A DNA stretch of 64,000 nucleotides from a virus (taxonomy: Duplodnaviria; Caudoviricetes), in the IMG/VR virus record IMGVR_UViG_3300022824_000016, positions 14,588 to 78,587 of that record; one strand, given 5' to 3'. The notes beneath the pieces are model-generated. The model was not told the origin of the DNA and searched no databases. It saw only the letters and a list, made by a program, of their open reading frames with translations. How positions within the stretch are numbered: position 1 is the first letter of the stretch; the number at the start of each line of letters is the position of its first letter. Both the position numbers and the translations under genes were made by a program. Of the stretch, positions 30,986 through 64,000 are shown in pieces.

Positions 30986-30996
30986 AGGAGAATGCC

Positions 30997-45814: not shown

Positions 45815-45979
45815 TGACAATGCAAAAAGTTTACACATGCAACATTTGCGGCACTGATCGCAAAAATGCCAACCATTGGTTTGTGGTCGGCACATCACTA
45901 CCGGAAAGGTTTATGGCGCAAAACGCAGAACAACCAACGCAATCAACCTCCCGCTGCGGCGGAGAAATGAGAGAAGACA

Positions 45980-46522: not shown

Positions 46523-46540
46523 TTTCGATGGGAGCAGAAA

Positions 46541-47278: not shown

Positions 47279-47299
47279 GTTTAAGCAATAATATAAACC

Positions 47300-47343
47300 A
47301 AAGTGCGGCGCTTGTCGAGTCAAACGCCGCACTTGTTTTTTTT
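47300..47343 (+). terminator. Rho-independent terminator
   Basis: AAGTGCGGCG/CGCCGCACTT stem followed by T8. Confidence 0.8.
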
Positions 47344-47402
47344 GAGTGGCTAAACGAAACAGGCTTGTTAAAATGACACAGTAAACAAAGAAGGAGGAAA
47401 AA

Positions 47403-47810
47403 ATGCAGTGTCCTATTCACAAGGTTGAAATGGTTTGCCCGGTTTGTGTGGGATCAATGGGAGGCAAACGCGGCGGGAAATCCCGCACGGAAACCAAGCA
47501 GAAGGCTGCGCGGAAGAATATCCAGAAAGCACGTGAAGTGCACATCGAAAAGGCACAACAAAGAAAGGCATTGGTTCTGCCACAGGAAAAAATTGACCGG
47601 AAAACGATTTGGGGTATAGATGATTGCCGCACTTATTTTTCAAGGTATCCCAGAAGAAATGTTAAAGCAAGCGATCTAATTGCCGCTGCTTCCCCCACAA
47701 AAAAAGCCAGTGCCCGCCTCTATGCAAGACAACGGCTACACATGCTGGCACAACGCGGCGAGATTGTACAGATCAGCCGAGGGATCTATCACAAGGCTGA
47801 AACGCACTAA
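47403..47810 (+). CDS. Small basic DNA-binding-like protein
   Basis: CPxH/CPxC, GGKRGGK segment and a C-terminal wHTH-like end. Confidence 0.5.
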   Translation: MQCPIHKVEMVCPVCVGSMGGKRGGKSRTETKQKAARKNIQKAREVHIEKAQQRKALVLPQEKIDRKTIWGIDDCRTYFSRYPRRNVKASDLIAAASPTKKASARLYARQRLHMLAQRGEIVQISRGIYHKAETH

Positions 47811-47893
47811 AAGCAAAAAAATTACGATGCGCGCAAATTTTTGTGGACAAATGGCTCCTTTTCTCTTAAATTGGTGGCCAAGTCGAATCCTTT

Positions 47894-49204: not shown

Positions 49205-49222
49205 TTTGAAGGGAAGAAAGAG

Positions 49223-49630
49223 ATGGAAGATGAATCCGAATCACTGTGGATTGGGACGTATATTTTGGATGATCAGGGAAATGCTCATCCGGAATATGAT
49301 ATTTTGACATGGGCAAAATGGATGGAAAAATCTGGTCGACCGTTAGTCTGCACTGAATTTGCGTGGGGAAGAGTCTCGACGGTCTTTCTTGGCCTGAATC
49401 ACAATTTTTTTCCAATGAAAAACCCTTTGAATTACAAACCGATCCTATGGGAGACCATGGTTTTTGGCGGCCCACTGGATATGGCGCAAACGCGCTACAC
49501 GTCGCAGGAAGAGGCATTCGCGGGCCATAAAGCGATGGTGGAGAGATGCATTGAAGAACAACAAAATCCGGAAGACAAAGTTTATCTGGAGAGAATGACA
49601 AAAATAGCAAAGCTGATGGAAGATCAATGA
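49223..49630 (+). CDS. Conserved phage hypothetical protein
   Basis: VSTVFLGLNH...WETMVFGG...RY...EEA.AGH motif. Confidence 0.65.
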   Translation: MEDESESLWIGTYILDDQGNAHPEYDILTWAKWMEKSGRPLVCTEFAWGRVSTVFLGLNHNFFPMKNPLNYKPILWETMVFGGPLDMAQTRYTSQEEAFAGHKAMVERCIEEQQNPEDKVYLERMTKIAKLMEDQ

Positions 49631-49643
49631 ACAACGAGGTACT

Positions 49644-50348
49644 TTATTCTTCCCTGCGATGTCGAAATGATTGCGTTAGATCAAAGCCCGCCTTCAAAAT
49701 CTTTTGCCGATTTGTGACCTCAACAGGCGGTTGTTGATCTGGAGCACTGTTCAGAGTATTGCCGACGAAATAGGCCAGATCCTGATACATCCGACTGGGC
49801 GGAATCAACGTTGGCATTCCAACTGTCTGCAAGATCGGGCATTGCCCAGCAATAGTGATACAGGTATTCGATGATTTCCATAAGCCGCAGGCTTCACGCA
49901 CAACAAAGACGGGTGCTTGAATCTGCCTCGATAGATCAACCAAAAAGGGCTGTTCGATTCCATAAGGAAACGAGTGCCTGGCCCAATACCTACGTTTCTT
50001 TTTTGTAATCTCTGCTGTTTCTTCTGGCGATTGCACTTTGAAATTGTTGACATTGGTAAAACGGGAACGGTACATTCCCATTCCCGGCTGAGTCATCCGA
50101 TATAGCTTTGCAGCCACTACCAAAAAAACAGTTTGCGTTTCCTGTTGATCGCGGCAAAACATGCTCGTCAAATCGCGCAGCGGAGAATCGCCCTCTATCT
50201 CAATTTGAAGGTTGGATTCGTTGATCTTATTTCCGTTATTTTTTTGTGGAACTAGACGCTTGCGAACGTAGACTATGCGCGGATCGCCGCCGCCAAACTG
50301 ATTGGCCACAAAGTCGCAGTAATCTTTGAACGGAGATTGAATAACCAC
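49644..50348 (-). CDS. Conserved phage hypothetical protein
   Basis: MVIQSPFKDYCD N-terminus; AGFDL..SFR C-terminus. Confidence 0.65.
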   Translation of the reverse strand: MVIQSPFKDYCDFVANQFGGGDPRIVYVRKRLVPQKNNGNKINESNLQIEIEGDSPLRDLTSMFCRDQQETQTVFLVVAAKLYRMTQPGMGMYRSRFTNVNNFKVQSPEETAEITKKKRRYWARHSFPYGIEQPFLVDLSRQIQAPVFVVREACGLWKSSNTCITIAGQCPILQTVGMPTLIPPSRMYQDLAYFVGNTLNSAPDQQPPVEVTNRQKILKAGFDLTQSFRHRREE

Positions 50349-50414
50349 GATGTTCCTCGATTGTTTTTTGCCGCCTTTGATAAGGTAAACAAAAATAACT
50401 GCCGAATGTCATAC

Positions 50415-50876
50415 ATTGCATCTCTGCGATGCACTCTATGTTCATTGTGCCTTTGAATCAGCCGGAGTGATGGCACTCAAGCATGTTGCATCTGTGCGAT
50501 GCACTTTTGGTTCAGTGTGCCTGCGCTAAACGCCGCGATGGCTGTCATCAAATGGTTGCATCTGCCCGATGCACTGTATGTTCTTTATGCCAAGAAACTG
50601 GGACAGAGAACATGTCTTGGAGGAAATGTTGCATCTGTCCGATGCACTGTAAGTTCATTGTGCCCGATGCCAATCGGTAAGCGTGCAGCCAGCAAGGGGT
50701 TGCATCTATGCGATGCACTTTTGTTCATTGTGCCTCGTTCCGTGATGTGATATGGCGGCACGCACTTCGTTGCATCTATGCGATGCACTTTATGTTCATT
50801 GTGCCGGGGCTACCAATGGCGAATGCGCTTAGTGACGTGGTTGCATCTATGTGATGCACTCTTGATTCAGTAGGCT
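50415..50876 (-). CRISPR. Satellite array 1: 7 degenerate repeats, 6 spacers (33-36 nt)
   Basis: Repeats at 50415, 50485, 50555, 50628, 50699, 50769 and 50840, all variants of the main repeat in reverse orientation. Confidence 0.95.
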
Positions 50877-50914
50877 GGACGACACAAAATGATTCTATCA
50901 CCGATCAAAGACTG

Positions 50915-51469
50915 TCAGGCAACAGAAGATTCGGCTGTATAGGTACCAGCGATGAGCGCTTTGGCGATTATACCGCTGGAATCGGGCCACGCAGCGCGGG
51001 AAGCCAGACCACTCCGATAGCTGGCACGCACAGGATTCTGTTTGATCCATGCATCGTAGGTTGCGTATTGTTGTAGCCGCATTTGAAAGAGCAAAACTTC
51101 CTCTTCCACGGCGTTTACGGCGGCAAGCGTTGCTGGGCCAAAATTTCTGTCAACTACAAGAGAAGCACCTGTTTTGACCAACGCTTTTTGCAGATTTCCG
51201 ATGCCAGTAGGCGTGCCCTGATTGACACAATCGTCTAAAATTTTGGTGGCTACATTTTGATTGGTGATTTGATTGTAAATCGAGTTCCAAAAATACTTCT
51301 GATAAAGCATTGTGGCTTCTTCGGCAGTGACGGGGAGCGAGATACCCAGTTGCACACATTCCGCCGTCGACCAACCGTAACGGGTAAAACCACCTGGATC
51401 GGCACGTAAGGTTCCCGCTTTACCTTCGTGTTGTAGAACAACTGGAATTGCCAAAGAAAAATCAGCCAC
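50915..51469 (-). CDS. GH108 lysozyme (endolysin) with a peptidoglycan-binding domain
   Basis: HEG...DPGGFTRYG catalytic motif; D..VNQG; FGPATLAA. Confidence 0.88.
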   Translation of the reverse strand: MADFSLAIPVVLQHEGKAGTLRADPGGFTRYGWSTAECVQLGISLPVTAEEATMLYQKYFWNSIYNQITNQNVATKILDDCVNQGTPTGIGNLQKALVKTGASLVVDRNFGPATLAAVNAVEEEVLLFQMRLQQYATYDAWIKQNPVRASYRSGLASRAAWPDSSGIIAKALIAGTYTAESSVA

Positions 51470-52052
51470 GGGCTACCCCCAGACTCATCGCAAGTGCGCT
51501 AAGACGCTTGTTCAGATCTTTTTGTCGCAAATATTTACCAAGGTTCCGCAGCACAAGCTGACGACCAACCGGGCCGCAGCGATCTATAAAAAAGATGCCG
51601 TTTAGATGATCGATTTCGTGCTGCACAATGCGTGCTATAGCACCTTTGTATATGCGTTCTATACCAGCATCGGGATCTTCAAGCGTGCCGAACCTGATCT
51701 GTACAATCTCGCTGCGCCAAACTCGTGCATTATTTTTGCCAACTGGAGGAAGACTGAAACAGCCTTCTGCACTTAACAGATCGCGACCACCGAGGTTCAT
51801 TATTTTCGGGTTGACGAGAACTTCAAAATGGCCGGGAACAGTAGCAGCAATAGCCAGCTGCACAAAAATGCCGAGTTGTGGCGCCGCCAAGCCCAGACCG
51901 TCGTGGCGCTGACAATACCGAGTCATGATGCTGAGCAGCTCCGTGATTTCTGACGAAACAGGTTTCACAATCCGCCGACAGGGCTTGCCAACAAGATCGG
52001 ACCGGTAAAACAACAACTCAGGTAGAGTAGACACGGAATGACCTCTGCACAC
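51462..52052 (-). CDS. def: Peptide deformylase
   Basis: GLAAPQLG, EGCFS and QHEIDHLNG motifs. Confidence 0.92.
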   Translation of the reverse strand: MCRGHSVSTLPELLFYRSDLVGKPCRRIVKPVSSEITELLSIMTRYCQRHDGLGLAAPQLGIFVQLAIAATVPGHFEVLVNPKIMNLGGRDLLSAEGCFSLPPVGKNNARVWRSEIVQIRFGTLEDPDAGIERIYKGAIARIVQHEIDHLNGIFFIDRCGPVGRQLVLRNLGKYLRQKDLNKRLSALAMSLGVARG

Positions 52053-52130
52053 GGACTAAATTGCATAATACATGCGTCCGTTTGAGAGGTCGTTATGTGT
52101 TTTGATCAGTCGCAAAAGGTTAAATATGAA

Positions 52131-52541
52131 TTAGCAAAAATCGTTCCAATCGTCGTTTTCGGAAGAACGTTTTGCAGATGCCGATTGGTTGGTGGATTGA
52201 TTGGGAGCAGAACCAGCCAGTACGAGTTCTTCGATTTTGACCTGAACTTGATATTTCTTTTCGCCGGAACGGGGATCTTCCCAGGAGTGCGTTTCGAATT
52301 TGCCCTCGACATAGAGCTTGCTGCCCTTTTGGACGTATTTCTCAATGACATCTGCAATACGTGCGTAGCCAACCAGCGTGTGCCATTCAGTTTTTTCTTT
52401 CCACTCACCGGATTTGTCTTTGTAACCATCACTTGTGGCCAGGGTAAGCGTAGCCACACTCACACCGCTGGGCAGTGCACGGATCTCAGGGTCTTTACCG
52501 ACATTGCCCAGCAGGATTACCTTGTTGATGCTTTTTGCCAT
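52131..52541 (-). CDS. ssb: Single-stranded DNA-binding protein
   Basis: SINKVILLGNVGKDPE...TEWH...KGSKLYVEG; acidic tail. Confidence 0.95.
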   Translation of the reverse strand: MAKSINKVILLGNVGKDPEIRALPSGVSVATLTLATSDGYKDKSGEWKEKTEWHTLVGYARIADVIEKYVQKGSKLYVEGKFETHSWEDPRSGEKKYQVQVKIEELVLAGSAPNQSTNQSASAKRSSENDDWNDFC

Positions 52542-52622
52542 AACGCTCCTCTGTCTGCTGTCTGCGGGCATCATAGCGCAAGTCGAGAAAAACCGCGATG
52601 GCAATCTATTGACTCAGATTTC

Positions 52623-52919
52623 ATTGTATTTGTCTGATGCGCTCTTGGGTCAGCGTGCCAAACGACAGTTCCGTTATGCAATCCTGGAATCGACGTTGCA
52701 CCTGCTCGGTGCACTCCTGGTTCAATGGGTAAATCAAAAAGATATTAATCGCCCGAAATTTTCAGTTGCATCTATCCGATGCACTGTTGAATCGGTGTGC
52801 GTGGCTTATTGAAAACAAACAGGCATCATTCTACGTTGTTGCATCTGTGCGATGCACTTTATGTTCATTGTGCCATCCTAGTCTTAATGTTCAGCGGAGC
52901 GGAGGTCCGTTGCATCTGT
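52623..52919 (-). CRISPR. Satellite array 2: 4 full repeats (1 perfect, 3 degenerate) plus 1 truncated, 4 spacers
   Basis: Repeats at 52623, 52695, 52765, 52838 (perfect) and 52909 (11 nt). Confidence 0.9.
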
Positions 52920-53244
52920 TCCTGGGAGTGCTCCATGCTCAATTGTCAAACCCACTGCTGCCGCTGCGAGCGCAATATCTTTGAGTCTGGTGTTTTCTTC
53001 TTCCAAAGATTGCAGTTGGGCAATTAAAGTGTCAATCATTTTTTTCTGTATAGCTATAAGTTTTGTGCACCAGTAATTGCGCCATATCACCGGCACAGCC
53101 AATAGCATTGCAATAGTAAAATCGGCAATGCACCATCCTCTGTGATGCAAAAGATAATTGATGGTAAAAAAATGCCGAGCGTGAAAAAAAGGATGCAATA
53201 AATTGCATCGAACAGGCTACGGAAAAATACATTGAGTTTATTGT

Positions 53245-53517
53245 TCACAGCCACACCTCTACGATGCAGGGATCATCGTTTGCAAAGCGCCCCATACAGT
53301 AAAGATTTTTAGGAACCTTTGCTTGTATTTCGGTTAAGGTCTTCGCAAAGGCTATCTTGTCGGTAGGAATCACCTTGGAACCGACAATATCCCAACGACG
53401 CAAAACGAACTTATCCGGATAGTCGCGTGGATGGTCGTAAATGACCCATTGTGACATCGTCAGATGAGGCGGTACAGCCAAGTCATTTTCCATCGGAGTA
53501 TCTACCCTGCTGCACAT
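53245..53517 (-). CDS. Hypothetical protein
   Basis: WVIYDHPRDYPDKFVLRRW...DDPCIVEVWL, a phage-type motif. Confidence 0.6.
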   Translation of the reverse strand: MCSRVDTPMENDLAVPPHLTMSQWVIYDHPRDYPDKFVLRRWDIVGSKVIPTDKIAFAKTLTEIQAKVPKNLYCMGRFANDDPCIVEVWL

Positions 53518-53627
53518 GGTACATAGCGATGTGCGCCGCTTGCCAGCGGCGGCGCAGATCCATGCGGTGCATGTCGACAGGTGGTCGCTCGTCGCAAAAG
53601 GGACAATCGGTCGGAATGCCCCAGCCC

Positions 53628-54317
53628 CTACCGGTTCGACGATAGCTGAAAATACTCAGCGCACCGACGGGCAAACTGGCGCGAAGGAAGGTCATTTTCA
53701 CTCGCAATTCTTTCGACAAGCCCCTCGATTTTTCCAACCGTATACGCGACGAACTCGGCTGTAATTCTCGAATCGAATTCTTCGGCTTGCGAAAAGGTAC
53801 GACGCTTTGAGTAGCCATTGATTTTCTCCTCGGTGGGTGTGGATACAACTAAAGCTTTTTGGGATAAATCGGGATGCACTTTTTGCATGTGGTTCGTCTT
53901 TCCTGCTTTGTTTTGCAGAACGCGTCCACAAATATCGCAACTAAAATTCGATTCTTTTTTGCCGGATTTTGGGAATTTCCGGGAGTAAACAGCGGTTTTA
54001 GAATTACCAACCACGTGATGAGACGCACGTCGATGGGATGCCCGACCACGCTTATCCTTGAAAGGCCCCCGTCCACATTCTGGACAAAATAAAGAATTCT
54101 CAGCAGCCGATAAAGGTGTGGGCGACGACACAGGAGGAAGAATGGTAGCTGAACCGTTTTCAACTGAGGGTGCCTCTGGTTGACTTCCAGCCCTGTCCTT
54201 GTTAGGAGTCTTACCCAGACCCAGCTCCTGATATTTTCCAGGATGTTTACTGCGCATGTGATTGCTCAGTGATACCACGTTTTTGATGTCGTCTTTGTCA
54301 CACAATGGGCATTTCAT
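53628..54317 (-). CDS. Protein with three C2H2 zinc fingers
   Basis: CPLC-x12-HMRSKH, CPEC-x13-HRRASH and CDIC-x12-HMQKVH. Confidence 0.75.
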   Translation of the reverse strand: MKCPLCDKDDIKNVVSLSNHMRSKHPGKYQELGLGKTPNKDRAGSQPEAPSVENGSATILPPVSSPTPLSAAENSLFCPECGRGPFKDKRGRASHRRASHHVVGNSKTAVYSRKFPKSGKKESNFSCDICGRVLQNKAGKTNHMQKVHPDLSQKALVVSTPTEEKINGYSKRRTFSQAEEFDSRITAEFVAYTVGKIEGLVERIASENDLPSRQFARRCAEYFQLSSNR

Positions 54318-54414
54318 CTTTTTCCCTCGAAAAATAAATTGCGAGCATACTATCGCAGTTGTGTCTTAAAAGCAAACAAAATCATAGAGTTCCCTCTCCG
54401 AAGCAACCCGGCTT

Positions 54415-54825
54415 CTAACGCTCGGATGCTTTCTGAGGTTCCGGAATCTCAAGACCACTGGTCAGATGGCTTTCGATCCACAATTCTCTGGAAATATCCA
54501 AAGAAGACAATGCCTCCTGTATGGTTTTTCCATCGGCAATGCAGCCCGGCAGTTCGGGATGCTTCGCAATCCAATAGCCCTCGGAATCGTATTGCAAATC
54601 AATACGGTAATTCTTTTCGGATTTGGTTTGTGTCTCTTCTGTCGTATCGGCAAATGCATCATGAACGCGAAAACGCACAATGATCTGCTTGCAATAAGCA
54701 CATTGGATCGAAAGCAACTCATCGGCCAGGACTGCCCATGTAGGCGCGCTGGGATGACAGCGCGAATGCACATACATCGGACCAGTATTGCCGCATCTTT
54801 TGCAATGAGACAATGCTCGTGTCAT
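54415..54825 (-). CDS. Zinc-binding domain fused to a HicB-like antitoxin domain
   Basis: C-terminal YWIAKHPELPGCIADGKTIQEALSSL...WIE...G.EIPEP. Confidence 0.75.
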   Translation of the reverse strand: MTRALSHCKRCGNTGPMYVHSRCHPSAPTWAVLADELLSIQCAYCKQIIVRFRVHDAFADTTEETQTKSEKNYRIDLQYDSEGYWIAKHPELPGCIADGKTIQEALSSLDISRELWIESHLTSGLEIPEPQKASER

Positions 54826-55202
54826 GGTTCGACTCTTCCTCTCAAATTCGCCGGTTCGTTTTTTCTGCGGCGCCGCCGACGAGGCGTTTTTTTGTTGCAG
54901 AACGAAGTTCCGATAAGGATAGAAGCTTCAGTTTTTTTGTCCTTCATAGCAGATCTGCAAACATTTTGAATTTTGGCCAATAGTGAAAAAGCTCGGGGAT
55001 TTTTAAGTGCCAACTCAACCAGTTCATCGTTAGAGATCTGTTGGAGCCGGTTTTCTTCGCAAAATCTGAGAACAGCGGAACAATAGATGCAAACTGTCAT
55101 AGTACCGACGTGCGAAGCGCAATCACCGATCAAATTGCCAGCAGCATCGAGAAGATGGCCGCAGGCAGGACAAGAAATCTCCGGGAGTCGGTATTCATCC
55201 AT
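54822..55202 (-). CDS. Zinc-binding hypothetical protein
   Basis: CPAC and CIYC pairs. Confidence 0.5.
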   Translation of the reverse strand: MDEYRLPEISCPACGHLLDAAGNLIGDCASHVGTMTVCIYCSAVLRFCEENRLQQISNDELVELALKNPRAFSLLAKIQNVCRSAMKDKKTEASILIGTSFCNKKTPRRRRRRKNEPANLRGRVEP

Positions 55203-55224
55203 CGTTTATCCTCGCAAACTTTTG

Positions 55225-55428
55225 CTACGGAAGCCTGTTTTCTACAAACTTGATCTTCAAATCGACGCCCAGCACTTTTGCAATTCGCTCCAGCGTGCGA
55301 ATGGCGCAAACGCGAGAACCTTCCAGACGGGAGATGGCTGATTGTCCGCATTGCAGCAGAGACGCCATCTCCTGCTGGGTGAGTCCCCGGCGCAGTCGTA
55401 GATCTCGAATTTGAGTACCCCAGTGCAT
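55225..55428 (-). CDS. XRE-family HTH regulator
   Basis: LRLRRGLTQQEMASLLQCGQSAISRLE. Confidence 0.85.
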   Translation of the reverse strand: MHWGTQIRDLRLRRGLTQQEMASLLQCGQSAISRLEGSRVCAIRTLERIAKVLGVDLKIKFVENRLP

Positions 55429-55904
55429 TCGTAAACAGGGTAGACCATTTTGAACCGTTGCAACAAAAAATATAGAATTTATGTGATATTTGTATCGAAT
55501 TTAATATCCAAATATCACATTTACCTCATAAAATTAATCAAGTCAGTGTCAAATCAGATTATTGTCCTCGTTTTTCAGTCGTTCATTTTTTTGGTTTTCT
55601 CAGGTTTTTTGCATTTTCTTTGCGTTTGTCCTGACCGCCGCTATTCCAGCGCCAGGTGCGGCAGCTTATGCATCGTTTTTTCAATGGCTTGTCTGGATCA
55701 AAGATCCACCGTGCATTACATAAATCGCAAATACAGATTTTTCCGTCCGTGATCATAGCCTCAATTTAAAACACTTTTCTAGTATTCGCAAAATTCATGT
55801 GTATTGCGGCTACCAATTAGGTATAATTTGCCTAATTGAAAAGTCCGCAAACCAATCCCAACAAGATCTCGAACGCGCTGGAGCGGATGAAGAGGAGTCA
55901 GGTA

Positions 55905-56558
55905 ATGCGAGCAGTGATTTATCTTCACGTCTTCAGGGGAGATGACGCACAACACACAGCCGATCAATTTGACCGGTTGTGTAATTATGTTAAGTCGCAA
56001 AAATGGCAACTGGTACACACCTACCGCGATGCACTCACAGGGAAAAGAAAGGATCGCACGGCCTACCAACAAATGCTTGCTGGGGCAGCCCGGCACAAAT
56101 TTGATGTACTGGTTTTTTGGTCGCTCGACCGACTTAGCCGTGAAGGTATTATGCCTACCATAACGCTATTGCAAAAACTCACTACATTGAATATCGGCTA
56201 TCGCAGTTTTACGGAACCCCATCTGGATTCCCTTGGTCCTCATCACGAGACTTTGATGGAACTATTAGCAACGCTGGGCAAGCAGGATAAAGTACGCTCA
56301 GAGAGCACTAGAATCGGTTTAAAACGGATGCGAGCAAACAATCAGCCTGGTCCGAAAGGTTTTTATGCTCCGGGACGACCACCAGTTCAGATTAACTTGA
56401 AAAAAGCAAAAAGGCTGCGCGCGGAAGGACTTTCGTATGAAAAAATCGCAAAACTATGCGGAACATCGAAAGCGACTCTCTATCGCCTTTTAAATCCCCT
56501 TGATGAAATCGCCCAGAAACAAAAAAAGGCAGCTTCTGAAAGAAACCACCTTTTATAA
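55905..56558 (+). CDS. Serine resolvase/invertase homolog lacking the catalytic serine
   Basis: YLHVFRG in place of YARVST; FDVLVFWSLDRLSR retained; C-terminal HTH. Confidence 0.8.
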   Translation: MRAVIYLHVFRGDDAQHTADQFDRLCNYVKSQKWQLVHTYRDALTGKRKDRTAYQQMLAGAARHKFDVLVFWSLDRLSREGIMPTITLLQKLTTLNIGYRSFTEPHLDSLGPHHETLMELLATLGKQDKVRSESTRIGLKRMRANNQPGPKGFYAPGRPPVQINLKKAKRLRAEGLSYEKIAKLCGTSKATLYRLLNPLDEIAQKQKKAASERNHLL

Positions 56559-56571
56559 AAACGAATTTGTG

Positions 56572-56823
56572 TTAGCTGGCTTTCTTTTCCAGCATCTCGA
56601 TTTTGGCGTCGTGGCGTCCAAGCGTTTGGTAAAACTGTGAGAGATCCGATTGTTGCCGATCAAGCCGTGCATTCAGATCAGATCCCATCCTGTCCATGCG
56701 ACCAGTCAGATCAGAATTCATTTTGTCCATACGTGACTCAAGAGAGCTGAAGCGATTATTATTGAACAACATACCAACAAAAACAGTCACAATCACAGCC
56801 GCAAAGCCGTAAACTTCGCTCAT
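56572..56823 (-). CDS. Small TM plus coiled-coil protein
   Basis: N-terminal hydrophobic helix followed by RMD repeats. Confidence 0.65.
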   Translation of the reverse strand: MSEVYGFAAVIVTVFVGMLFNNNRFSSLESRMDKMNSDLTGRMDRMGSDLNARLDRQQSDLSQFYQTLGRHDAKIEMLEKKAS

Positions 56824-57113
56824 AGGAACACTCCTATCTTATTTTACTCTATTCGTTTCATGCGCGCAATTTAATTCATGCAGTCCGGAATTCGGACTAT
56901 TGCGTTAATCCGAGTTTGGCAAATTCCCGTATCGTAAATTCTTTGCTTTCCGGACTCAGACTGGCCAGGAGCTTCCGTCGACATTCGGCCTCCCGTTCCT
57001 TTTTCCTGCGTACAAATTCTACATGGCGTTTTTCCATTTCAGCTTTTTTAGTTTTCTTTCCTCGATTCATCGCTTTCCCTCCTGCCGTATTACTATAGCA
57101 AAGGGCTTTTTCT

Positions 57114-57470
57114 TTGAGAAAAGAATTAAGTGATTTTCTAAATTCGCCGCGTAGAAATACCTGGTTGTCCACGCCAGAAATGGCGGTCTATTTGCGCAAA
57201 GGCAGACATTTGGGCAGTGACGGTCGCATCCATACTTTTTTAGATATTGCCAGCATTGAAGTGCAACCGGAATTTCGCGATCAAGGGTACTTCAAAGCAT
57301 TTCTGGCTCTCTGTCAGGAGATCATTCCCTATGACGGCATTCTGATTGAAAATGTTCTAAGCGAAATTCTGCATAATTATCTTCATCGCCTCGCGCAACG
57401 GGATCCTTGGTGGATTGAATTGGAATGGCATTTTCGCTGGGAAAACTTTGGCGGGGCAGCCAGGATTTGA
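57114..57470 (+). CDS. GNAT-like hypothetical protein
   Basis: IASIEVQPEFRDQGYF motif A. Confidence 0.55.
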   Translation: MRKELSDFLNSPRRNTWLSTPEMAVYLRKGRHLGSDGRIHTFLDIASIEVQPEFRDQGYFKAFLALCQEIIPYDGILIENVLSEILHNYLHRLAQRDPWWIELEWHFRWENFGGAARI

Positions 57471-57522
57471 ACCCGGAAATTCGGTTTTGGAGACCGACGG
57501 TTTTCCATTAGCCTACTCCCCC
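57449..57522 (-). tRNA. tRNA-Trp(CCA)
   Basis: Cloverleaf; anticodon arm TCGGT CTCCAAA ACCGA; G73 and CCA. Confidence 0.85.
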
Positions 57523-57532
57523 GCTTATCAAA

Positions 57533-57568
57533 GGACAAAAGCAAACCCCGGCATGGGCCGGGGTTTGC
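57533..57568 (-). terminator. Terminator of the HNH-TROVE operon
   Basis: 12-bp stem GCAAACCCCGGC/GCCGGGGTTTGC followed by TTTT on the minus strand. Confidence 0.75.
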
Positions 57569-57679
57569 ATATATTTCAACAGGTTAACCTTGAAGGAGCA
57601 TTACCTTTGTTTAAATCCACACACCACACACGGGAACGAGATGCGACGTTTTCAAAATACATCCATGTGTCTGGCCTTG

Positions 57680-57976
57680 TCAAGAAACAGCTGCTTCCAG
57701 TTCAGCTTTTTCTTTTTCCAATTCAGCCCGGCGCTCTGCCGGCGTCTTGAGGCTCTGCAATTGTGCCTCAATCTGCTTGCGCCGCGCCTGCCGCTTATCA
57801 TCAACCTTCGACGCTATCTCGCGCCGCAACAGTTTGAGTTGGGTATCAACGAATTCGGGTTCGTCTACTTTCTGCGCCTCATACTCCGCACGCAGAATTC
57901 TGCCAAATGCAGCCAGAGCAACCATGTCGTCCACATTCAGACGATCTTTATTAAAGTTCTGAAAATCACTCAGCAC
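57680..57976 (-). CDS. Coiled-coil protein coupled to the TROVE-like gene
   Basis: 98-aa ORF overlapping the upstream stop. Confidence 0.7.
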   Translation of the reverse strand: MLSDFQNFNKDRLNVDDMVALAAFGRILRAEYEAQKVDEPEFVDTQLKLLRREIASKVDDKRQARRKQIEAQLQSLKTPAERRAELEKEKAELEAAVS

Positions 57977-59463
57977 GCTACTGCCTCCTTTCCTACGCTT
58001 TCAAAAACGTCCTTCAACTTCAACAGCTTTGTGGCCATCACTTCGTCGCACAATGAATACCGATTGGTCCTCATAGTGCTGACAAGATTTGGCAGGGAAT
58101 AAAAATCAACGCTTTCGTCAATATCGAAAACCTGCATGTCGATACCGGCAGATTGCATCAAATGGGTAAACGCGTACGATTTGTTTCCACAGTGATACAG
58201 ATATACCGTCGGCTCTTTCCCCGCAAAGGCCGCATATTGCGGATACACATGATGGAAGAACGGTGTCGAGTTCTCTCCACCGTCAGAGACAATGGCAATT
58301 CCGTCGATCTCTTCTTTGGTCTCCAGCATCCGCTGTAATCCACAACCGATCGAGGTTCCTCCATTGGCACAAATGTACTGTGTTGCCTTCTGGATCGCGT
58401 CCAGTGGCGCTCCGGACACGTCAATGGTCTGCGGCTGGGTATCGAAGAAGACCAGCCACACCCTGCCCTTCACCATTTTGGCCAGGGTTCCTGCAATCCG
58501 CCTGGCAATTTCGATGGCCCGCGCCATCGAACCGGACTTATCGCCCAGCACCAGCCAGTTGCCTTCCACACCCATACTCAGCAACTGACGATCCTGCAAA
58601 CCGCGCAGCTTTTCCTTCAAGCCTTCATCGTCGATGGCTTCAGCTGCACGTGTCGTCTTCAACACGTTTTTTTTGCTCGATGCGGCCTTCTTCAGTGCCT
58701 CTTCAAAAGCTCCGCGCAATGCCGGATTGGTCTTCACACCCAGCTTCTCCAGCATTTTGGTGTTGGTCACCACTTCGGTCGGTGACATTTGCTGAATTAG
58801 CGCCAATACCACATTCGGATCCTTCATCTTTTCGCCCAGCGCACCGTTGGCCACAATAAATGGAATTCTGCGACTGATAATCTCGCTGGCCGCTCCCACC
58901 GGACTCATATCTTTCAGGTGTGTTACCACCTCAAAAACCGATCCAGTTGGCAATGGTGCTCTGGTCTTGTCCAGATGACGCCCATAAAGTACAACATTGA
59001 TGCGATCCTTTTCCGGTCGCGCGTGTGCCAAAGAATACAATTCCTTCAACACCTTGTGATGCTGCAGGGCCAGCCGGTCCCAATGCCGGTCATTTTCCTT
59101 TTCGCGCAGCCATGTCCTCACCAAATGGCGAACGGTGCCCATTCTGCTGGCGTTTCCAAAGGCTTCACGACCGGCAAAGCGAAATGCGCGCAACAGCTCC
59201 CGCGGTCCCAGCAGCGCCAAATGCGCCAGAGAGTTTTCCCTTAATTCCGGTGGAAACGCAGGTTCGGCCAGCGTGATTACCGGCAATGCAACCTTTGCAT
59301 CGCGTATTTGTCCGTTGATCCTGTCCCATGCAATCAGATGTGCCAGAAACTCGGGTTCCTGTTTGGCCGCCGTCATTCCAACCGCCAGATAATCCACAAG
59401 CTTGCCGTGCGGCGACTTCGACAACTGAGAAAGAATGTTGTTCTTTGTCAACCCGGTTTCCAT
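57970..59463 (-). CDS. Ro60/TROVE-like helical domain plus vWA domain protein
   Basis: MIDAS GDKSGSM, GGTS and VSDGGEN; N-terminal EPEFLAHLIAWDR...IRD helical repeats. Confidence 0.65.
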   Translation of the reverse strand: METGLTKNNILSQLSKSPHGKLVDYLAVGMTAAKQEPEFLAHLIAWDRINGQIRDAKVALPVITLAEPAFPPELRENSLAHLALLGPRELLRAFRFAGREAFGNASRMGTVRHLVRTWLREKENDRHWDRLALQHHKVLKELYSLAHARPEKDRINVVLYGRHLDKTRAPLPTGSVFEVVTHLKDMSPVGAASEIISRRIPFIVANGALGEKMKDPNVVLALIQQMSPTEVVTNTKMLEKLGVKTNPALRGAFEEALKKAASSKKNVLKTTRAAEAIDDEGLKEKLRGLQDRQLLSMGVEGNWLVLGDKSGSMARAIEIARRIAGTLAKMVKGRVWLVFFDTQPQTIDVSGAPLDAIQKATQYICANGGTSIGCGLQRMLETKEEIDGIAIVSDGGENSTPFFHHVYPQYAAFAGKEPTVYLYHCGNKSYAFTHLMQSAGIDMQVFDIDESVDFYSLPNLVSTMRTNRYSLCDEVMATKLLKLKDVFESVGKEAVAC

Positions 59464-59473
59464 GCCATCCTCC

Positions 59474-60043
59474 TTATGAGATTTTTCTCGCTTTCAGATA
59501 GTTCATAAAAAACTCGTAATCAAGCTTTTTCAGAGTGCACCAATCATTGGGATCCATCGCACCTTTGTCTTTGTTGCAACGACGGCAGCAACTCAAATAA
59601 TTGGAGGTATCATTTTTTCCGCCAATCTCCAGAGGAATGAAGTGATCAATCGTTAACTGCACGTCGCCCATTTGTCGACCGCAGTAGATGCACTTTAGTC
59701 CATCCGCCATCCACACTTTTTGCTGAACAGCGCCAGAGATCTCATAACGCACTTTGCGATGAAACACCTTTTCAAGCGAATCCTGAACAAGAATCTCCGG
59801 CTGATCGGAACGTTGCAGCCAGTCAGTCCACTCTTCTGGTGTCAGGCGAAAGACGGGGGCCACGATATTCGGACCCGATCCAATCAACGGATCCATGAAA
59901 CCGACGTTCGGCAACAATAAAACCGCCTGCGCTTTTTCGCCGCCGATCACCAGACCTTCAATTTTGAGAAGAGAGCCAACATCGCCCCAAAGAGCTGGCC
60001 GATGGCGCAGATCCAACTGATAGAACCTATCTCCGCTGGCCAT
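59474..60043 (-). CDS. HNH endonuclease
   Basis: CIYCG...TIDHFIPLEIGGKN...N...CCRRCNKDKG. Confidence 0.88.
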   Translation of the reverse strand: MASGDRFYQLDLRHRPALWGDVGSLLKIEGLVIGGEKAQAVLLLPNVGFMDPLIGSGPNIVAPVFRLTPEEWTDWLQRSDQPEILVQDSLEKVFHRKVRYEISGAVQQKVWMADGLKCIYCGRQMGDVQLTIDHFIPLEIGGKNDTSNYLSCCRRCNKDKGAMDPNDWCTLKKLDYEFFMNYLKARKIS

Positions 60044-60156
60044 TTTCTACCCTCGGTTATTTTTATAGCTGAAAGTCGTTTTTTACGATTTGGAAGCTGC
60101 CCTGGGGCTTCCGAAGAAGCCCCAATAACTGCTCAGCGAAAATCAACCAAATATGA

Positions 60157-60267
60157 TGGAGGGCATCGGATTCGAACCGATTTAGAGCACCCCGAAAGGT
60201 ACTCTTTTAGCCATGTAGCCGATTCAGGTAGCCATTGCTGGCAAGTCAGAAACGGTTTCTGCCCCCC
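60157..60267 (-). ncRNA. tRNA-like RNA with an Ala-type acceptor (G3:U70, A73) and aberrant core
   Basis: GGGGGGC/GCCCTCC-A; T arm ATCGG TTCGAAT CCGAT; long variable-arm hairpin; no normal D or anticodon arm. Confidence 0.55.
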
Positions 60268-60340
60268 AAAACTCAAAAGGCAAAAGTCGGTTTGCGTTCT
60301 GTGCGTGAAAGGCATGTAAGCAAACCAGTATCGCCTAAAC

Positions 60341-60460
60341 TGGCTGGGGGAGACGGGAGTTGAACCCGCTTGGCAGTCTCCATAGGACTGTGCATGTATA
60401 CGCTCACAGTAGCTGACTGAGCAGCAAGTCGCATGCGTTTCACGTTTTGCTACTCCCCCA
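60341..60460 (-). ncRNA. tRNA-like RNA with an 8-bp acceptor stem, G73-CCA and expanded anticodon arm
   Basis: TGGGGGAG/CTCCCCCA; class II D-arm; variable arm CAGTC/GACTG; T arm GCGGG TTCAACT CCCGT. Confidence 0.6.
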
Positions 60461-60497
60461 AAACTATTCCCCGCAAGTCGTTCGGCAATCCCTTTCG

Positions 60498-60570
60498 GGA
60501 TCAGGGTTGGAATCGAACCAACTACCCTCAGATTACAAATCTGATGCTCTACCAAATGAGCTACATGTAA
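60498..60570 (-). tRNA. tRNA-Thr(UGU)-like with a broken acceptor stem
   Basis: Intact D, anticodon (TCAGA TTTGTAA TCTGA) and T arms; acceptor strands do not pair. Confidence 0.55.
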
Positions 60571-60649
60571 GCCGCACAGTAACGAGGAAACTCAAACGCA
60601 ACGCAATTCAATATACACCTTTTTGAAATGCTGCCACAAAATTATTTTT

Positions 60650-61021
60650 TTACTTTTTCGACCAGTCAAATTCGTTGGAAAACATATCGTTGCCGCTTTC
60701 ATATTCTATTTTAAAATTCATCTCTTCCAGAATCGGCGGTATGATCTGCAGCAGCCCTGGAAGCTTCGGACATTGCATTCCTTTCACCCGTCCAAAAGCT
60801 TTACACAACCACGGCCGCACCGGATAAATCACGCATTGAAAGTTCATCTGATCGAGAAAGGCACAATCCGCCAGACGGCGTTTTTGTGCCGTTAGGCGCA
60901 CGCGTTCCGCTTCAGGTAATGTCGCAATAAAAACGCGAATTTTTTCCAACCTTGCGCAGGAAAGCGGAACCGGTCCGCAACAGCGTGCCTTGCAGGAAGA
61001 ACAAGGAAAGGAATCGCTCAA
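60650..61021 (-). CDS. YkgJ-like CxxCxxCC protein
   Basis: CSSCKARCC...CAFLD...C.IY.VRPWLC. Confidence 0.8.
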   Translation of the reverse strand: MSDSFPCSSCKARCCGPVPLSCARLEKIRVFIATLPEAERVRLTAQKRRLADCAFLDQMNFQCVIYPVRPWLCKAFGRVKGMQCPKLPGLLQIIPPILEEMNFKIEYESGNDMFSNEFDWSKK

Positions 61022-61148
61022 GAAGACACCTCAGTCTTCTTCTTCTTCAACTTCCGCGTCTTCGTCCTCTTCAAAAAAATCACATTCACAATCGTCAGCA
61101 TTGCATTTGCTGTTGCCCGGATAACCCGGATCGCCGCCATGCTCATCT

Positions 61149-61412
61149 TCACTGTGGCCACACAGACAAATCAACATTTTTTCTTCTCCTTAGAGTTTCC
61201 TCTTTGATTTTTTTGCTTCTTGAAGGATCCGTCACTTCCGGAAAGCCACGCTCCAATACCTGATTCAGATTAATGCCATGGAGCGCAATGTAATGGCGAG
61301 GCACAAGCCAGGTACGAATCCCAAAAGTAACCCGGATATTTTCACCCAGTTCATCCACCAGCCTCTGCATCATCCAAGGTTTGCCACATGCGCACATCGT
61401 CTCTTCGATCAT
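61149..61412 (-). CDS. Hypothetical protein
   Basis: 87-aa ORF in the leftward run. Confidence 0.45.
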   Translation of the reverse strand: MIEETMCACGKPWMMQRLVDELGENIRVTFGIRTWLVPRHYIALHGINLNQVLERGFPEVTDPSRSKKIKEETLRRRKNVDLSVWPQ

Positions 61413-61812
61413 GCGCGCAAATATACTACAAAAAACAGCCTTGTGAAAGGAATTTTTCGGGGTAAATTCTTCTTAATTGAGCGTTGAAATTTTCGCAAAA
61501 GCAGCCTTTGTACGCATTTTTTGCCATTCCCGTTGAAACTCGACAAAAATCCTGTCTTCCACATTCTTTGGAAGCATCACGCCATGCTCCATAAATCCGA
61601 CGAAGTCTATTTCGTTCGACATGTCAAAGCAGTCAAGACATAACAAGGACATTTTGTTTTTCTGTGCTTTGGCCACGCTGCCAGCCGTAGGCCAGATCGT
61701 GGCACCACATTGCGAGCAAACAGTTTTTTCGGCATTCGGCATCGGCACAGAGCCGCAGATAAGAACAATCGATTTCTCTTCACACATCTTTTTCCCATCC
61801 TTTCTACTTCCA

Positions 61813-62325
61813 TTACAGCACGGGGGCCGGTTTCGGTATCCATTCAAGTCCAAACATCTTTTTCAATTTCGCCAGCACTATCTTCCGACGCCGACCAGGT
61901 TTTCCATTCGACGTAATATTGGTTACGTAAAAAAACACGGCATAAAGAAGTTGCGCCAAAGCCTGCGGAAAATCAGTCCATTGATGCGGCATCTGAAAAA
62001 GAATAAGCCCGGCAATGAAACCAAATACTATCTGCAATACAATTCGAAACACCGCCTGGAGCTGATCTATTCGCGAACATTCCCTTACAAAGTCTGGACG
62101 CCGATGCAATATCCACATAAAGTAACCCACACTACCAACACAAACAAATTTGAGAGTGACAATGACAGAATTCCAGACCGGAGAGGGTATATATAGTAGT
62201 AAATAGAGCAGGATCATACCCTGCTCCGCACGTTTCTGGCTGATCGAAAACCATTCTTCCAGCCAGAGTAACAACGTTTTTAGTCGGCAAAAAATCCACT
62301 GATCATAACGAATGATCCAATTCAT
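61813..62325 (-). CDS. Membrane protein
   Basis: About four hydrophobic segments. Confidence 0.55.
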   Translation of the reverse strand: MNWIIRYDQWIFCRLKTLLLWLEEWFSISQKRAEQGMILLYLLLYIPSPVWNSVIVTLKFVCVGSVGYFMWILHRRPDFVRECSRIDQLQAVFRIVLQIVFGFIAGLILFQMPHQWTDFPQALAQLLYAVFFYVTNITSNGKPGRRRKIVLAKLKKMFGLEWIPKPAPVL

Positions 62326-62348
62326 GGGCGCAATTATAACGCGGAAAA

Positions 62349-62425
62349 TGGCGACTGTCTTTGGAATCGAACCAGACTCTCCGGATTTTCAGTCCGGTAC
62401 TTTTACCCAGTTGGCCTGGCGCATC
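62349..62425 (-). tRNA. Degenerate tRNA-Phe(GAA)
   Basis: Anticodon arm CCGGA CTGAAAA TCCGG, T loop and CCA present; acceptor and D stems poorly paired. Confidence 0.5.
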
Positions 62426-62434
62426 CAAACGCCT

Positions 62435-62773
62435 CTATTTCCTCTTCAGCCGCTGAAACCACTGCGGAGGCCATTTGCTGTATTCAAAAGCTTGGCGAGT
62501 CCCCTCCCAGAGCCCCTGAAGGACCTCCTGATGCGTCTGCCAGTCATGATTGCTCGGCAACATTAAAAATTGCGATCCATCGCGGTCCCAGGAGTAGGTT
62601 TCATTCCCGGCGCATTCGTATTTATGCGGTGTGAGAGCACTGTCGTAATCTGTCAGCGTCTTCAACCATTGATTCTGTTTTCGCCGCACATTGCGGCGCG
62701 CGATTGTTTTGTCCCTGCTTGCGCTTCTGCATACACAGATGGCGGAGTACGGACGCCGTATCGATCTGCTCAT
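62435..62773 (-). CDS. Conserved phage hypothetical protein
   Basis: MSRSIRRP...DK..ARR.VR N-terminus. Confidence 0.55.
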   Translation of the reverse strand: MSRSIRRPYSAICVCRSASRDKTIARRNVRRKQNQWLKTLTDYDSALTPHKYECAGNETYSWDRDGSQFLMLPSNHDWQTHQEVLQGLWEGTRQAFEYSKWPPQWFQRLKRK

Positions 62774-62825
62774 GTTTTGGTGATCCTTTAGTCACTTACA
62801 ACACGGCAAACCTCCTTCCAGGTTT

Positions 62826-62902
62826 TGGTGGAGCAGGAGAGAATCGAACTCTCGACCTCTGGAGTGCAAAACCAGCGCTCATCCCAACTGAGCTACGGCC
62901 CC
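62826..62902 (-). tRNA. tRNA-Ala(UGC)
   Basis: Cloverleaf with G3:U70, A73 and CCA. Confidence 0.88.
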
Positions 62903-62966
62903 ACTTCATTTATCCGTTTCTAAATTCCGGAGTGCAGGGCCGGGTTCGAACCTGCACACAAATCTT

Positions 62967-63042
62967 TGGAGCTGACGACAGGGATTGAACCTGCGACCCT
63001 CCGATTACAAATCGGAAGCTCTACCAGCTGAGCTACGTCAGC
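62967..63042 (-). tRNA. tRNA-Thr(UGU)
   Basis: Fully paired cloverleaf with CCA. Confidence 0.95.
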
Positions 63043-63318
63043 CAAATTTTTCACTTACCAGTCAAATTTGTCACTTCTGGTAAATTTGAACGGTGGTTTA
63101 AGTGCTGCAAAGATCGCTTTCATCTGCTCCACCGATTGGTCCGATTTACCCATGATGCGCATTGTGACCTTGCCTTCACGCCTGGGATCATGCTTTGTAT
63201 CAAAGTTGCGGAGCATCTGCATGAACTCCCGCGCATAATCGTCAGGGGAGCTGATTTCCAGAAAAACTTTCATGCGCAGGATTTTACCATGGAGGGAGGA
63301 ATGGGAATTTTATTTTTT

Positions 63319-63394
63319 TGGCTGGGAAGGCGGGATTCGAACCCACAACCCCTGCGTCCAAAGCGCAGTGCTCTGCCGGTTGAGCTACTTCCCA
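63319..63394 (-). tRNA. tRNA-Gln(UUG)
   Basis: Cloverleaf with U1-A72, G73 and CCA. Confidence 0.95.
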
Positions 63395-63620
63395 ATCGTT
63401 TTTGTTTCAAACAACTCTGCGCATAGTTCCGTTTTTGCGTTGAACCCAATGCTGGATCTCTAAAATCGATTTTCCCATCATCCATTTAAAAATCGGCGCG
63501 GTGTGTTGAACCCAATTATTTTTGCCGACTTCAATACCAGCACAGGCATAGCCAACATCGATCTGCCACAATTGCATTTTCTGATCCATCGATGCCTCGC
63601 TTATCACGGATTGGAAAAGT

Positions 63621-63931
63621 ATTGCATCTACCCGATGCACTTTTGGTTCATTGTGCCGCAATAAAGAAGTAATTGCTGCCTGCTGTAAGAGTTGCATCTA
63701 TGCGATGCACTGTCCATTCATTATGTTGCAAAGTAAGAGCGGCGAACCAGCGCCATGTAGTTGTTGCATCTATGCGATGCACTTTATGTTCATTGTGCCT
63801 GGGATTTCCTAGCATCATCGTGTTGGGCCTTACAGCGTTGCATCTATGCGATGCACTGTATGTTCTGTGTACCGTTCAACGCTAATCTCACGCTCCTTGA
63901 CATCAAGGGTTGCATCTGTGCGATGCACTTT
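63621..63931 (-). CRISPR. Satellite array 3: 5 degenerate repeats, 4 spacers (33-37 nt)
   Basis: Repeats at 63621, 63691, 63763, 63837 and 63909 (last keeps only 23 nt of the repeat). Confidence 0.93.
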
Positions 63932-64000
63932 CAGTACAGAAAGAAAAGATATTTCATGTTGTCCTTCCTTTAAATCAAGCAGCCACATTTTTAACTTCAT

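Follow-up and report, generated by a model that had tools for sequence, protein, structure and literature searches.

Dispersed CRISPR Arrays With a Conserved Hairpin Handle in a Temperate Peat-Soil Phage Encoding a Cas12m-Like Effector

Introduction

[quoted passage not shown] Why should a phage with its own cas genes also carry three further clusters of the same repeat, on the opposite strand and between genes of other functions? The question is raised by a 64,000-nt stretch of DNA (hereafter the window) comprising bases 14588–78587 of the 78,587-nt IMG/VR record IMGVR_UViG_3300022824_000016; the end of the window is also the end of the record. The record is classed as a provirus, with a completeness estimate of ∼59%, and its source is a temperate peat-soil Acidobacteria phage with its own Cas12m-like CRISPR system. 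In addition to the cas-adjacent (main) array, the window holds three satellites, here termed A, B, and C, which a first-pass annotation had proposed to be a distributed guide library for one effector in trans. We hold the satellites to be true CRISPR arrays belonging to the phage-encoded type V system, and consider it likely that they are inherited as trans-acting sources of guides and are functional rather than relic.

Dispersed Arrays of One Repeat Family

Repeats were located with a repeat finder, a fuzzy search, and a covariance-model scan (both strands, filters off), and all three returned the same 27 sites: 11 identical copies of a 37-nt repeat beside the cas genes and, on the other strand, 16 copies that have diverged and that make up the three reverse-orientation clusters noticed by the first-pass annotation (coordinates in Table 1). 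The covariance model scored all 16 as members of the same family as the cas-adjacent array (E-values of 1.5e-11 to 5e-3) and found no other repeat at E < 1 in the 64-kb window on either strand; because it had been built from the repeats of this phage and its relatives, with the window repeats among its rows, the absence of further matches is the informative part of this result. In each satellite, at least three direct repeats of 23–50 nt recur at regular spacing around unique spacers of similar length, the arrangement by which a CRISPR array is recognized. The period is 70–74 nt, and the spacers, all unique, are 33–37 nt long, the length range also found in the main array. As had been claimed, the satellite spacers differ from those of the main array: in a comparison of the four arrays, none is common to a satellite and the main array, nor to two satellites. 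All satellite repeats lie in minus-strand sense.

The repeats of satellite A start at 50415, 50485, 50555, 50628, 50699, 50769, and 50840; the array begins 38 nt past the stop of a GH108 lysin gene and ends 66 nt before the open reading frame (ORF) 49644–50348, and every handle stem (see below) is intact. Those of satellite B start at 52623, 52695, 52765, and 52838. Its four repeats stand as first described and its additional stub falls away: the stub gets no score from the covariance model, both it and the supposed spacer B1 fall within the 3′ end of a 51-codon ORF, and it is probably not a working repeat, so B is counted as four repeats and three spacers. This leaves 13 satellite spacers instead of the 14 first reported, and 22 distinct spacers in the window (9 in the main array and 13 in the satellites), or the 23 originally given if B1 is counted. 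Satellite C, with repeats starting at 63621, 63691, 63763, 63837, and 63909, immediately precedes a small ORF (63590 down to 63407), which is followed by a tRNA-Gln/Thr/Ala cluster (62826–63394). The record ends 55 nt upstream of C (window 63946–64000), where the assembly probably broke at the repeats, so that the record may lack other arrays or genes on that side. An 8-codon ORF with a strong GGAAGGA ribosome-binding site runs into the first repeat of C.

Each satellite had been described as beginning with a repeat eroded in its 5′ half. This holds for A and for C, the first repeat of which retains the handle alone; it fails for B, which opens with a perfect canonical repeat (52838), the same as that of the main array. 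At the opposite end, the transcript-distal repeat of each satellite ends in CAAT (3 of 3, against 0 of 13 other repeats; Fisher p ∼0.002), as the first-pass annotation had seen, including the broken terminal repeat of B with its 12 mismatches; among the relatives described below, this terminal rule fails.

Selection on the Hairpin Handle

The 16 satellite repeats were compared position by position with the canonical repeat. Differences amount to 62/272 in the 5′ half (23%) and 20/80 in the 5-nt loop (25%), against 5/192 in the stem (12 positions; 2.6%), and the 5′ half differs from the non-loop handle at a Fisher p of 2e-11. Two of the five stem changes form a compensating pair in repeat 52695–52731, where a T-to-C and an A-to-G substitution restore pairing (stem GCACC/GGTGC), and the other three fall in the dead terminal repeat of B. 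The two 3′ bases of the repeat have changed solely from C to T, in three terminal repeats, and the spacing is kept without insertions or deletions, the sole exception being a 1-nt deletion in one 5′ half. The handle, the 3′ hairpin part that stays on a type V CRISPR RNA (crRNA), is under purifying selection, with one compensatory change. Confinement of variation to the 5′ half and the loop is expected if the 20-nt handle is still used and the rest is free to drift, and the satellites are not the product of random decay.

The same structure is evident in a wider alignment. Across 127 distinct repeats from the window and three related phages, 98.8% of stem cells are paired, a percentage inflated by the filter of at least 5/6 stem pairs with which the rows were collected; two-sided stem changes, which the filter does not inflate, occupy 48 cells, against 9.1 in shuffles (reached in 0 of 500), a statistic that overstates independence because related arrays share ancestry. 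RNAalifold independently predicts the same 6-bp hairpin. The stem alleles (GCATC/GATGC, GCACT/AGTGC, GCGCT/AGCGC, GCACC/GGTGC, GGCTC/GAGTC, and GCATT/AATGC) vary within and between phages and still pair, and the covarying hairpin lies immediately 5′ of the spacer. Mutual information, computed for every pair of columns, returned only the stem pairs and lineage signal, with no second structure and no pseudoknot with the 5′ half. On both strands of the window, including the vicinity of cas12, there is no anti-repeat and no solitary repeat unit, all repeats being in arrays.

Conservation of the Arrays in Related Phages

The handle pattern was found at 46 loci on ∼25 IMG/VR contigs, several of which have many separate loci, and five related records (G001–G005) were taken whole, which provided the comparison with related phages that had been suggested as a check. 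Each of the five has 4–6 separate arrays of up to 23 repeats, with loops that differ from repeat to repeat. In G003, the lysin gene (39282–39812, after the deformylase) is directly followed by an array at 40032–41390, and in G002 the deformylase gene (30338–30820) is directly followed by arrays at 30870–33415. These post-lysin and post-deformylase arrays are syntenic with satellite A, and the proteins involved are 51–60% identical to those of the window; more broadly, the multi-array layout is conserved in relatives whose proteins are 50–68% identical. Another array of the relatives adjoins a homolog of ORF 53245–53517, near the place of satellite B, if not exactly at it.

The main array is preceded by a leader in which the GAGGTTCGCG box occurs twice, at 27232 and 27321 (89 nt apart), with a promoter-like site at 27334–27362 that has a TG-extended −10 element and stops 16 nt short of repeat 1. 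In G001, G003, and G004, this two-box, 89-nt leader is found ahead of the post-lysin array, so the array that bears the leader differs between phages. A 36-codon ORF (27277–27387) in the main leader has its stop inside repeat 1. Such a leader ORF of 36–38 codons, with a strong AAGGAGATAA ribosome-binding site upstream, crosses the second GAGGTTCGCG box (read as R-F-A) at window 27214–27387, at ∼8820–8940 of the related locus L078, and at ∼19880–20020 of G003 (locus L056), there within the leader of its post-lysin array, and stops inside the first repeat; no Pfam family matches it, and it could be a leader peptide or a coincidence of the conserved leader.

Adaptation genes vary among these phages. 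The cas4-cas1-cas2 set recurs in L078 (effector 86% identical), and no cas4, cas1, or cas2 was found in L076 (effector 95% identical), G002, or G003, nor any adaptation genes within 10 kb of the effector in seven loci from metagenome-assembled genomes (MAGs). The arrays of the clade are therefore kept without a resident adaptation module, which itself appears, from this distribution, to be gained or lost on a short time scale. In L076 (1119–4503, corresponding to window 22986–28400), a leader and an 8-repeat array directly follow the effector; the repeats are homogeneous, one spacer is duplicated, as is also the case in the main array of the window (spacers 7 and 8 identical, leaving nine distinct of 10), and all spacers differ from those of the window, which points to rapid turnover of the cas-adjacent array. 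Repeat variants in the satellites are similar to the main repeats of sister phages, and the 5′ half of the repeat at 50628 is identical to that of the L078 repeat. Taken as a whole, the distribution of adaptation genes, leaders, and repeat variants suggests that the dispersed arrays are old and inherited, with reshuffling by recombination as a probable but more conjectural step.

Several arrays of the relatives have features of their own. Two hairpin alleles (GCACT/AGTGC and GCATC/GATGC) are mixed in the cas12-adjacent array of G003 (locus L055, 12706–13987), which suggests either that units of different origin have recombined or that the effector tolerates both. In G001 (locus L049, 5638–6262), an irregular repeat cluster has uneven spacing and mixed stem alleles (GCGCT/AGCGC and GCGTC/GGCGC), and two of its units are parted by the same 10-nt segment, ATGGATAGGT, with no normal spacer; unlike a standard array, this could be a regulatory crRNA-like locus. 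In G002 (locus L053, 11532–11810), a BrnA-antitoxin-like gene (PF14384, 1.2e-17) lies between two segments of the post-deformylase array, and homologous DNA is found in several Acidobacteriaceae genomes.

Environmental Occurrence and the Relic Explanation

The stretch 49600–53300 is present in sequencing runs of ten studies of peat, lake, and fresh water, and satellite A's distal units recur unchanged in DNA contigs from two of the other studies (lake water, 2022; peat, 2018). In the metatranscriptome X16, contigs at least 99% identical to the window cover all 30 bins of 44001–64000, as sequences that cannot show transcription, ends, or strand; X20 yielded a few pieces, including 50225–50468. 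Since the peat metatranscriptome contigs are possibly DNA carry-over, they were counted neither for nor against transcription of the satellites. One X16 contig joins 63762 to 50769 via an identical repeat. Array joints and "novel spacers" in X5, X11, and X16 have short sides (21–37 nt) and were not used as evidence of recombination or acquisition: their source may be the main array, related phages, or short-word assembly through repeats, and they are no proof of recombination.

These observations bear on the explanation that the satellites are decaying relics, i.e., pieces of a once larger array that were scattered by rearrangement and are now eroding unused. The eroded 5′ halves of the first repeats of A and C, the mutated terminal repeats, the heavy degradation and AT-rich spacers of B, the lack of leader boxes, and the lack of targets in the collections searched (below) would all fit such a history. 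It leaves unaccounted for the stem substitutions, ∼9 times rarer than those of the 5′ half or loop and in one case compensated, as well as the regular 33–37-nt spacing, with its sole 1-nt deletion, the equivalent arrays at syntenic sites in relatives with 50–60% protein identity, and the identical units of satellite A in samples of other studies. We regard the relic explanation as unlikely for the satellites as a group.

The Effector and Guide Production

The entire 78.6-kb record encodes a single effector. Its PADLOC profile matches are to Cas12f (8e-29) and Cas12u1 (2.3e-28), and in a phmmer search against the PDB its best matches are Cas12m4a (9e-7) and Cas12m2, the solved relatives being solely Cas12m. 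An AlphaFold2 model (mean predicted local distance difference test score, pLDDT, of 82.6) was compared by Foldseek with known structures; the top four matches are Cas12m2/Cas12m complexes (E 5.6e-20 to 4.8e-16; template modeling scores normalized by target of 0.51–0.57), ranking above Cas12f and TnpB. By predicted fold and profile, the effector is a Cas12m-like protein, with an extra N-terminal region of ∼110 amino acids (aa). The RuvC positions are E456 (codon at window 24351–24353), E639, and D727. Across the family, the RuvC-I column is D/E/H/R (22 D, 11 E, 6 H, and 1 R in 40 members), RuvC-II is E/Q, and RuvC-III is D. The six sequences with H at RuvC-I may coincide with the six that carry Q at RuvC-II, in which case they would resemble the published H-Q-K Cas12m clade. 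About 100 unnamed clusters of homologs, of 690–800 aa, derive from Terracidiphilus and Acidobacteriaceae MAGs and from peat metagenomes.

Characterized Cas12m proteins use a single crRNA of 50–60 nt and no trans-activating crRNA (tracrRNA), which they process themselves within the repeat in a Mg-dependent manner (PMC11013384, PMC10442227). They bind DNA in a manner dependent on a protospacer-adjacent motif (PAM) without cleaving it, even in D-E-D variants (PMC11013384, PMC10442227), and sequence therefore cannot decide between binding and cutting in the present case. By homology, we infer that guides are made here in the same way, in which event any transcript that bears the handle can supply guides in trans. 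The single Cas12m-like effector would recognize the conserved 3′ hairpin handle UGCAUC-N5-GAUGCA-AC, cut the precursor within the repeat without a tracrRNA, become loaded with the 33–37-nt spacers, and bind, and possibly cut, matching DNA beside a PAM.

A phage repeat could in principle act on a CRISPR system other than its own, and repeat units and mini-arrays with effects on host CRISPR systems are known from phages (PMC11656645). The satellites might by this account be RNA decoys (RNA anti-CRISPRs) that soak up a host-encoded Cas12m-like effector, and homologous effectors do occur on Acidobacteriaceae MAG contigs, at loci that may themselves be prophages. Given that the phage has its own effector with exactly this repeat, that the satellites have full-length unique spacers, and that the window holds no solitary repeat units, we judge a decoy role to be very improbable.

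Genomic Surroundings of the Satellites

The satellites occupy short gaps between minus-strand genes, and the flanking genes originally named, the lysin, SSB, and the tRNA cluster, are all recovered by Pfam and tRNA annotation, together with the peptide deformylase. Satellite B, ssb, deformylase, lysin, and satellite A form one co-directional block, and the crRNA sense of each satellite, with the hairpin at the repeat 3′ end as in the main array, is the sense of its neighboring genes. Of the three satellites, A alone has a promoter-like site just upstream; it is weak, and such sites occur in the region at chance-level number.

TABLE 1. Coordinates of arrays, cas genes, and neighboring features in the window.
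Feature	Position	Strand	Basis or location
Satellite A, 7 repeats and 6 spacers	50415–50876	−	Repeat searches, covariance model
Satellite B, 4 repeats and 3 AT-rich spacers	52623–52874	−	Between 51-codon ORF and ssb
Stub of B, 11–14 nt like repeat 3′ end	52909–52925	−	Inside 3′ end of ORF 52884–53039
Satellite C, 5 repeats and 4 spacers	63621–63945	−	Upstream of small ORF and tRNA cluster
Main array, 11 identical 37-nt repeats and 10 spacers	27378–28131	+	Repeat searches
Main-array leader	27193–27377	+	Two GAGGTTCGCG boxes, promoter-like site, small ORF
Cas12m-like type V effector, 753 aa	22986–25247	+	Profile, phmmer, fold match
Adaptation module cas4-cas1-cas2	25248–27192	+	Pfam, PADLOC; closest to type I-C profiles
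cas4	25248–25883	+	Pfam Cas_Cas4 1.5e-24; PADLOC Cas4c
cas1	25868–26899	+	Pfam Cas_Cas1 8e-93; PADLOC Cas1c
cas2	26902–27192	+	Pfam CRISPR_Cas2 9e-23; PADLOC Cas2c
ssb–peptide deformylase–GH108 lysin block, between B and A	50915–52604	−	Pfam
GH108 lysin	50915–51469	−	Pfam Glyco_hydro_108 and PG_binding_3
Peptide deformylase	51462–52052	−	Pfam Pep_deformylase 4.6e-26
SSB	52131–52604	−	Pfam SSB 1.4e-30
Promoter-like site CTGACA ... TGaTAGAAT, just upstream of A	50889–50918	−	Consensus match alone

On the strand that opposes the crRNA sense, each repeat takes the form of a 6-bp hairpin with a T-rich tail behind it; these antisense hairpins lie at 27396–28129 on the minus strand and at 50417–50858, 52840–52856, and 63623–63855 on the plus strand. 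A terminator scan of three regions gave 15, 9, and 22 sites, against 5.4, 1.5, and 8.1 expected, an excess that is due to this hairpin and tail in every antisense repeat, and the arrays might dampen antisense transcription. Such hairpins lead to a further explanation, under which the repeats are mainly structural elements of RNA or DNA (mRNA processing sites at the ssb-deformylase-lysin block, antisense-stopping hairpins, or patches of homology for cassette exchange), with a guide role that is secondary or absent. The bracketing of that block by A and B, the BrnA-antitoxin-like gene between two array segments in G002, and the match of satellite repeat variants to main-array variants of sister phages (the 50628 repeat and L078) are consistent with one or other of these roles. 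None of them, however, needs unique spacers of constant CRISPR length; the hairpins are weak as terminators, selection falls on exactly the crRNA handle, the two 3′ bases included, and the contig joints between arrays are what short-word assembly at repeats would produce and no proof of recombination. A mainly structural role seems improbable to us.

Spacer Targets

The first-pass annotation had proposed searching all spacers against viral, plasmid, and host sequences, and the search returned no protospacer for any of the 22 window spacers in the phage, plasmid, IMG/VR, and Acidobacteriaceae collections covered, which were samples and exact-match scans and thereby do not establish that targets are absent. 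GenBank phages gave no match to arrays A, B, C, or the main array. Exact 24-mers of spacers A2, B2, C3, C1, and M7 were absent from IMG/VR, as were 22-mers of C3 and A2 from JGI metagenome contigs, and ∼390–400 sampled Acidobacteriaceae genomes gave, for each array, repeat matches and chance-level partial matches and nothing more. Nor were self-targets found in the 78.6-kb record and the 46 related loci beyond chance words of 11–14 nt; against their own record, the satellite spacers match at most 11–12 contiguous nt, or 14/15 with one mismatch (E ∼0.1–0.4). The 251 spacers of six related genomes, compared with each other, showed no cross-targeting, and spacer sharing was limited to near-identical phages.

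Individual candidates were also examined. PLSDB plasmids searched with array A and the main array gave one match (E 0.5), which is attributed to chance. In the Acidobacteriaceae genomes, two candidate targets of A5 (24/33 and 22/33) were rejected for mismatches at the PAM-proximal end, and a 23/24 match of C3 in a lytic-transglycosylase-like gene was rejected because it has no T-rich flank and ∼0.35 such matches are expected by chance.

The single match that convinces belongs to a relative: a spacer of the post-deformylase array of G002 (L053, 13274–13307) matches an Acidobacteriaceae chromosome at 31/34 positions with a 5′ TTC flank (E 1.2e-6 per genome). On the strength of this one match, a T-rich (TTN) PAM is predicted. 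The target, on contig G072:C90 (L080 1501–1536; L085 9932–10744), lies in a 270-aa ORF of unknown function, the C-terminal part of which matches PHROG 16834, and which is paired with a 354-aa ORF, also of unknown function. It is near an integrase and an imuB-dnaE2 cassette, with no PADLOC match around it, and may be a host island targeted by this phage group.

Functional Interpretation

Selection on the handle, the single effector, and the conserved layout argue against decaying relics and for guides in trans, and they support the core of the original proposal of a distributed library serving one effector; the stage-specific expression that it also envisaged is conjectural. Several points weigh against a functional reading. 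Satellite B is degraded, with 10–12 mismatches in 3/4 repeats and spacers of 27–46% GC; it may be mostly or partly relic and is the weakest case of the three. As the first-pass annotation had recognized, no GAGGTTCGCG leader box lies near the satellites, nor is there a strong promoter, and their transcription, with the surrounding minus-strand genes or from weak local promoters, is something we infer. Glu replaces Asp at RuvC-I of the effector, in a column that is variable in the family, and activity is unreadable from the sequence. The lack of protospacers for the window spacers, and the filter and shared ancestry that affect the repeat alignment, are to be counted on the same side.

The cas-adjacent array, with its homogeneous repeats, is a fast-turnover array. 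The heterogeneous repeats of the satellites, their lack of a two-box leader, and the relatives without cas1 and cas2 indicate that they are probably not sites of routine Cas1-Cas2 acquisition; it is apparently recombination between phages that maintains the satellites and probably also shuffles them. A more extended scenario is possible, though we hold it to be rather doubtful as a whole. It envisages a clade of temperate Acidobacteriaceae phages with a Cas12m-like, probably DNA-binding, programmable silencer, in which inherited arrays in different transcription units would release sets of guides, against host islands or rival elements, at set points of infection or lysogeny, and would be renewed by exchange of cassettes between co-infecting phages and not by Cas1-Cas2. 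Both the mixture of hairpin alleles in single arrays and the frequent lack of adaptation genes would then be explained.

In these peat and freshwater phages, an entire clade maintains many arrays spread among its operons, for the most part in the absence of adaptation genes. It is thereby a natural setting in which to study the upkeep and renewal of arrays without Cas1-Cas2, and the supply of guides may be tied to phage transcription units. Selection on exactly the 20-nt handle also reads out the minimal guide scaffold of an uncharacterized Cas12m-like effector of ∼750 aa, revealing tolerated loop and stem variants that will be useful for testing the enzyme.

Comparison With Known Systems

Multiple or orphan arrays served in trans by one cas locus are common in bacteria. 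What the satellites have in common with these is the presence of several arrays of one repeat type at a distance from a single cas locus, with guides presumably used in trans. They differ in their placement in short intergenic gaps of phage operons, in repeats that are heterogeneous with the handle alone conserved, and in a layout shared throughout a clade of phages that for the most part have no adaptation genes.

Among characterized effectors, the closest system is type V-M (Cas12m, formerly V-U1), known from plasmids and some prophages. It includes the best structural and profile match of the effector, and the two share the repeat hairpin just 5′ of the spacer, the lack of a tracrRNA-like anti-repeat (searched for here in the window), and carriage on mobile elements. 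V-U1 systems are typically without adaptation genes (PMC11013384), as are most of the relatives examined here, whereas the window genome has a full cas4-cas1-cas2 module. Further differences are the size of the effector (753 aa, with an added N-terminal region, in place of the compact ∼600 aa), its ∼14% identity to solved Cas12m, its E-E-D triad (D-E-D in many relatives) as opposed to H-D-D, and several dispersed arrays instead of one adjacent array.

Viral mini-arrays that borrow host Cas proteins (PMC11656645) are likewise short viral arrays away from cas genes, with a plausible role in conflict between mobile elements. They have 1–2 spacers, repeats identical to those of the host, and no viral effector, whereas the satellites have 3–6 spacers (and arrays in the relatives up to 23 repeats) and a cognate effector in the same record. 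RNA anti-CRISPRs are isolated repeat copies without spacers, of which the window has none. The mini-arrays that encode crRNA-like RNAs (crlRNAs; bioRxiv 10.1101/2023.03.03.530964) also combine degenerate repeats with a conserved effector-binding part; they are neighbors of cas genes and show partial complementarity to a cas or toxin promoter of the same locus, whereas no satellite spacer matches the 78.6-kb record beyond 11–12-nt chance words. In a viral survey, ∼11% of array-bearing viral elements had at least two arrays, and at most six (PMC12607003). Trans-acting orphan arrays and multi-array viral elements are thus already known, and current concepts are not overturned; the value of the present finding is in the clade-wide conservation of the layout, the selection confined to the handle, and the maintenance of many arrays without adaptation genes.

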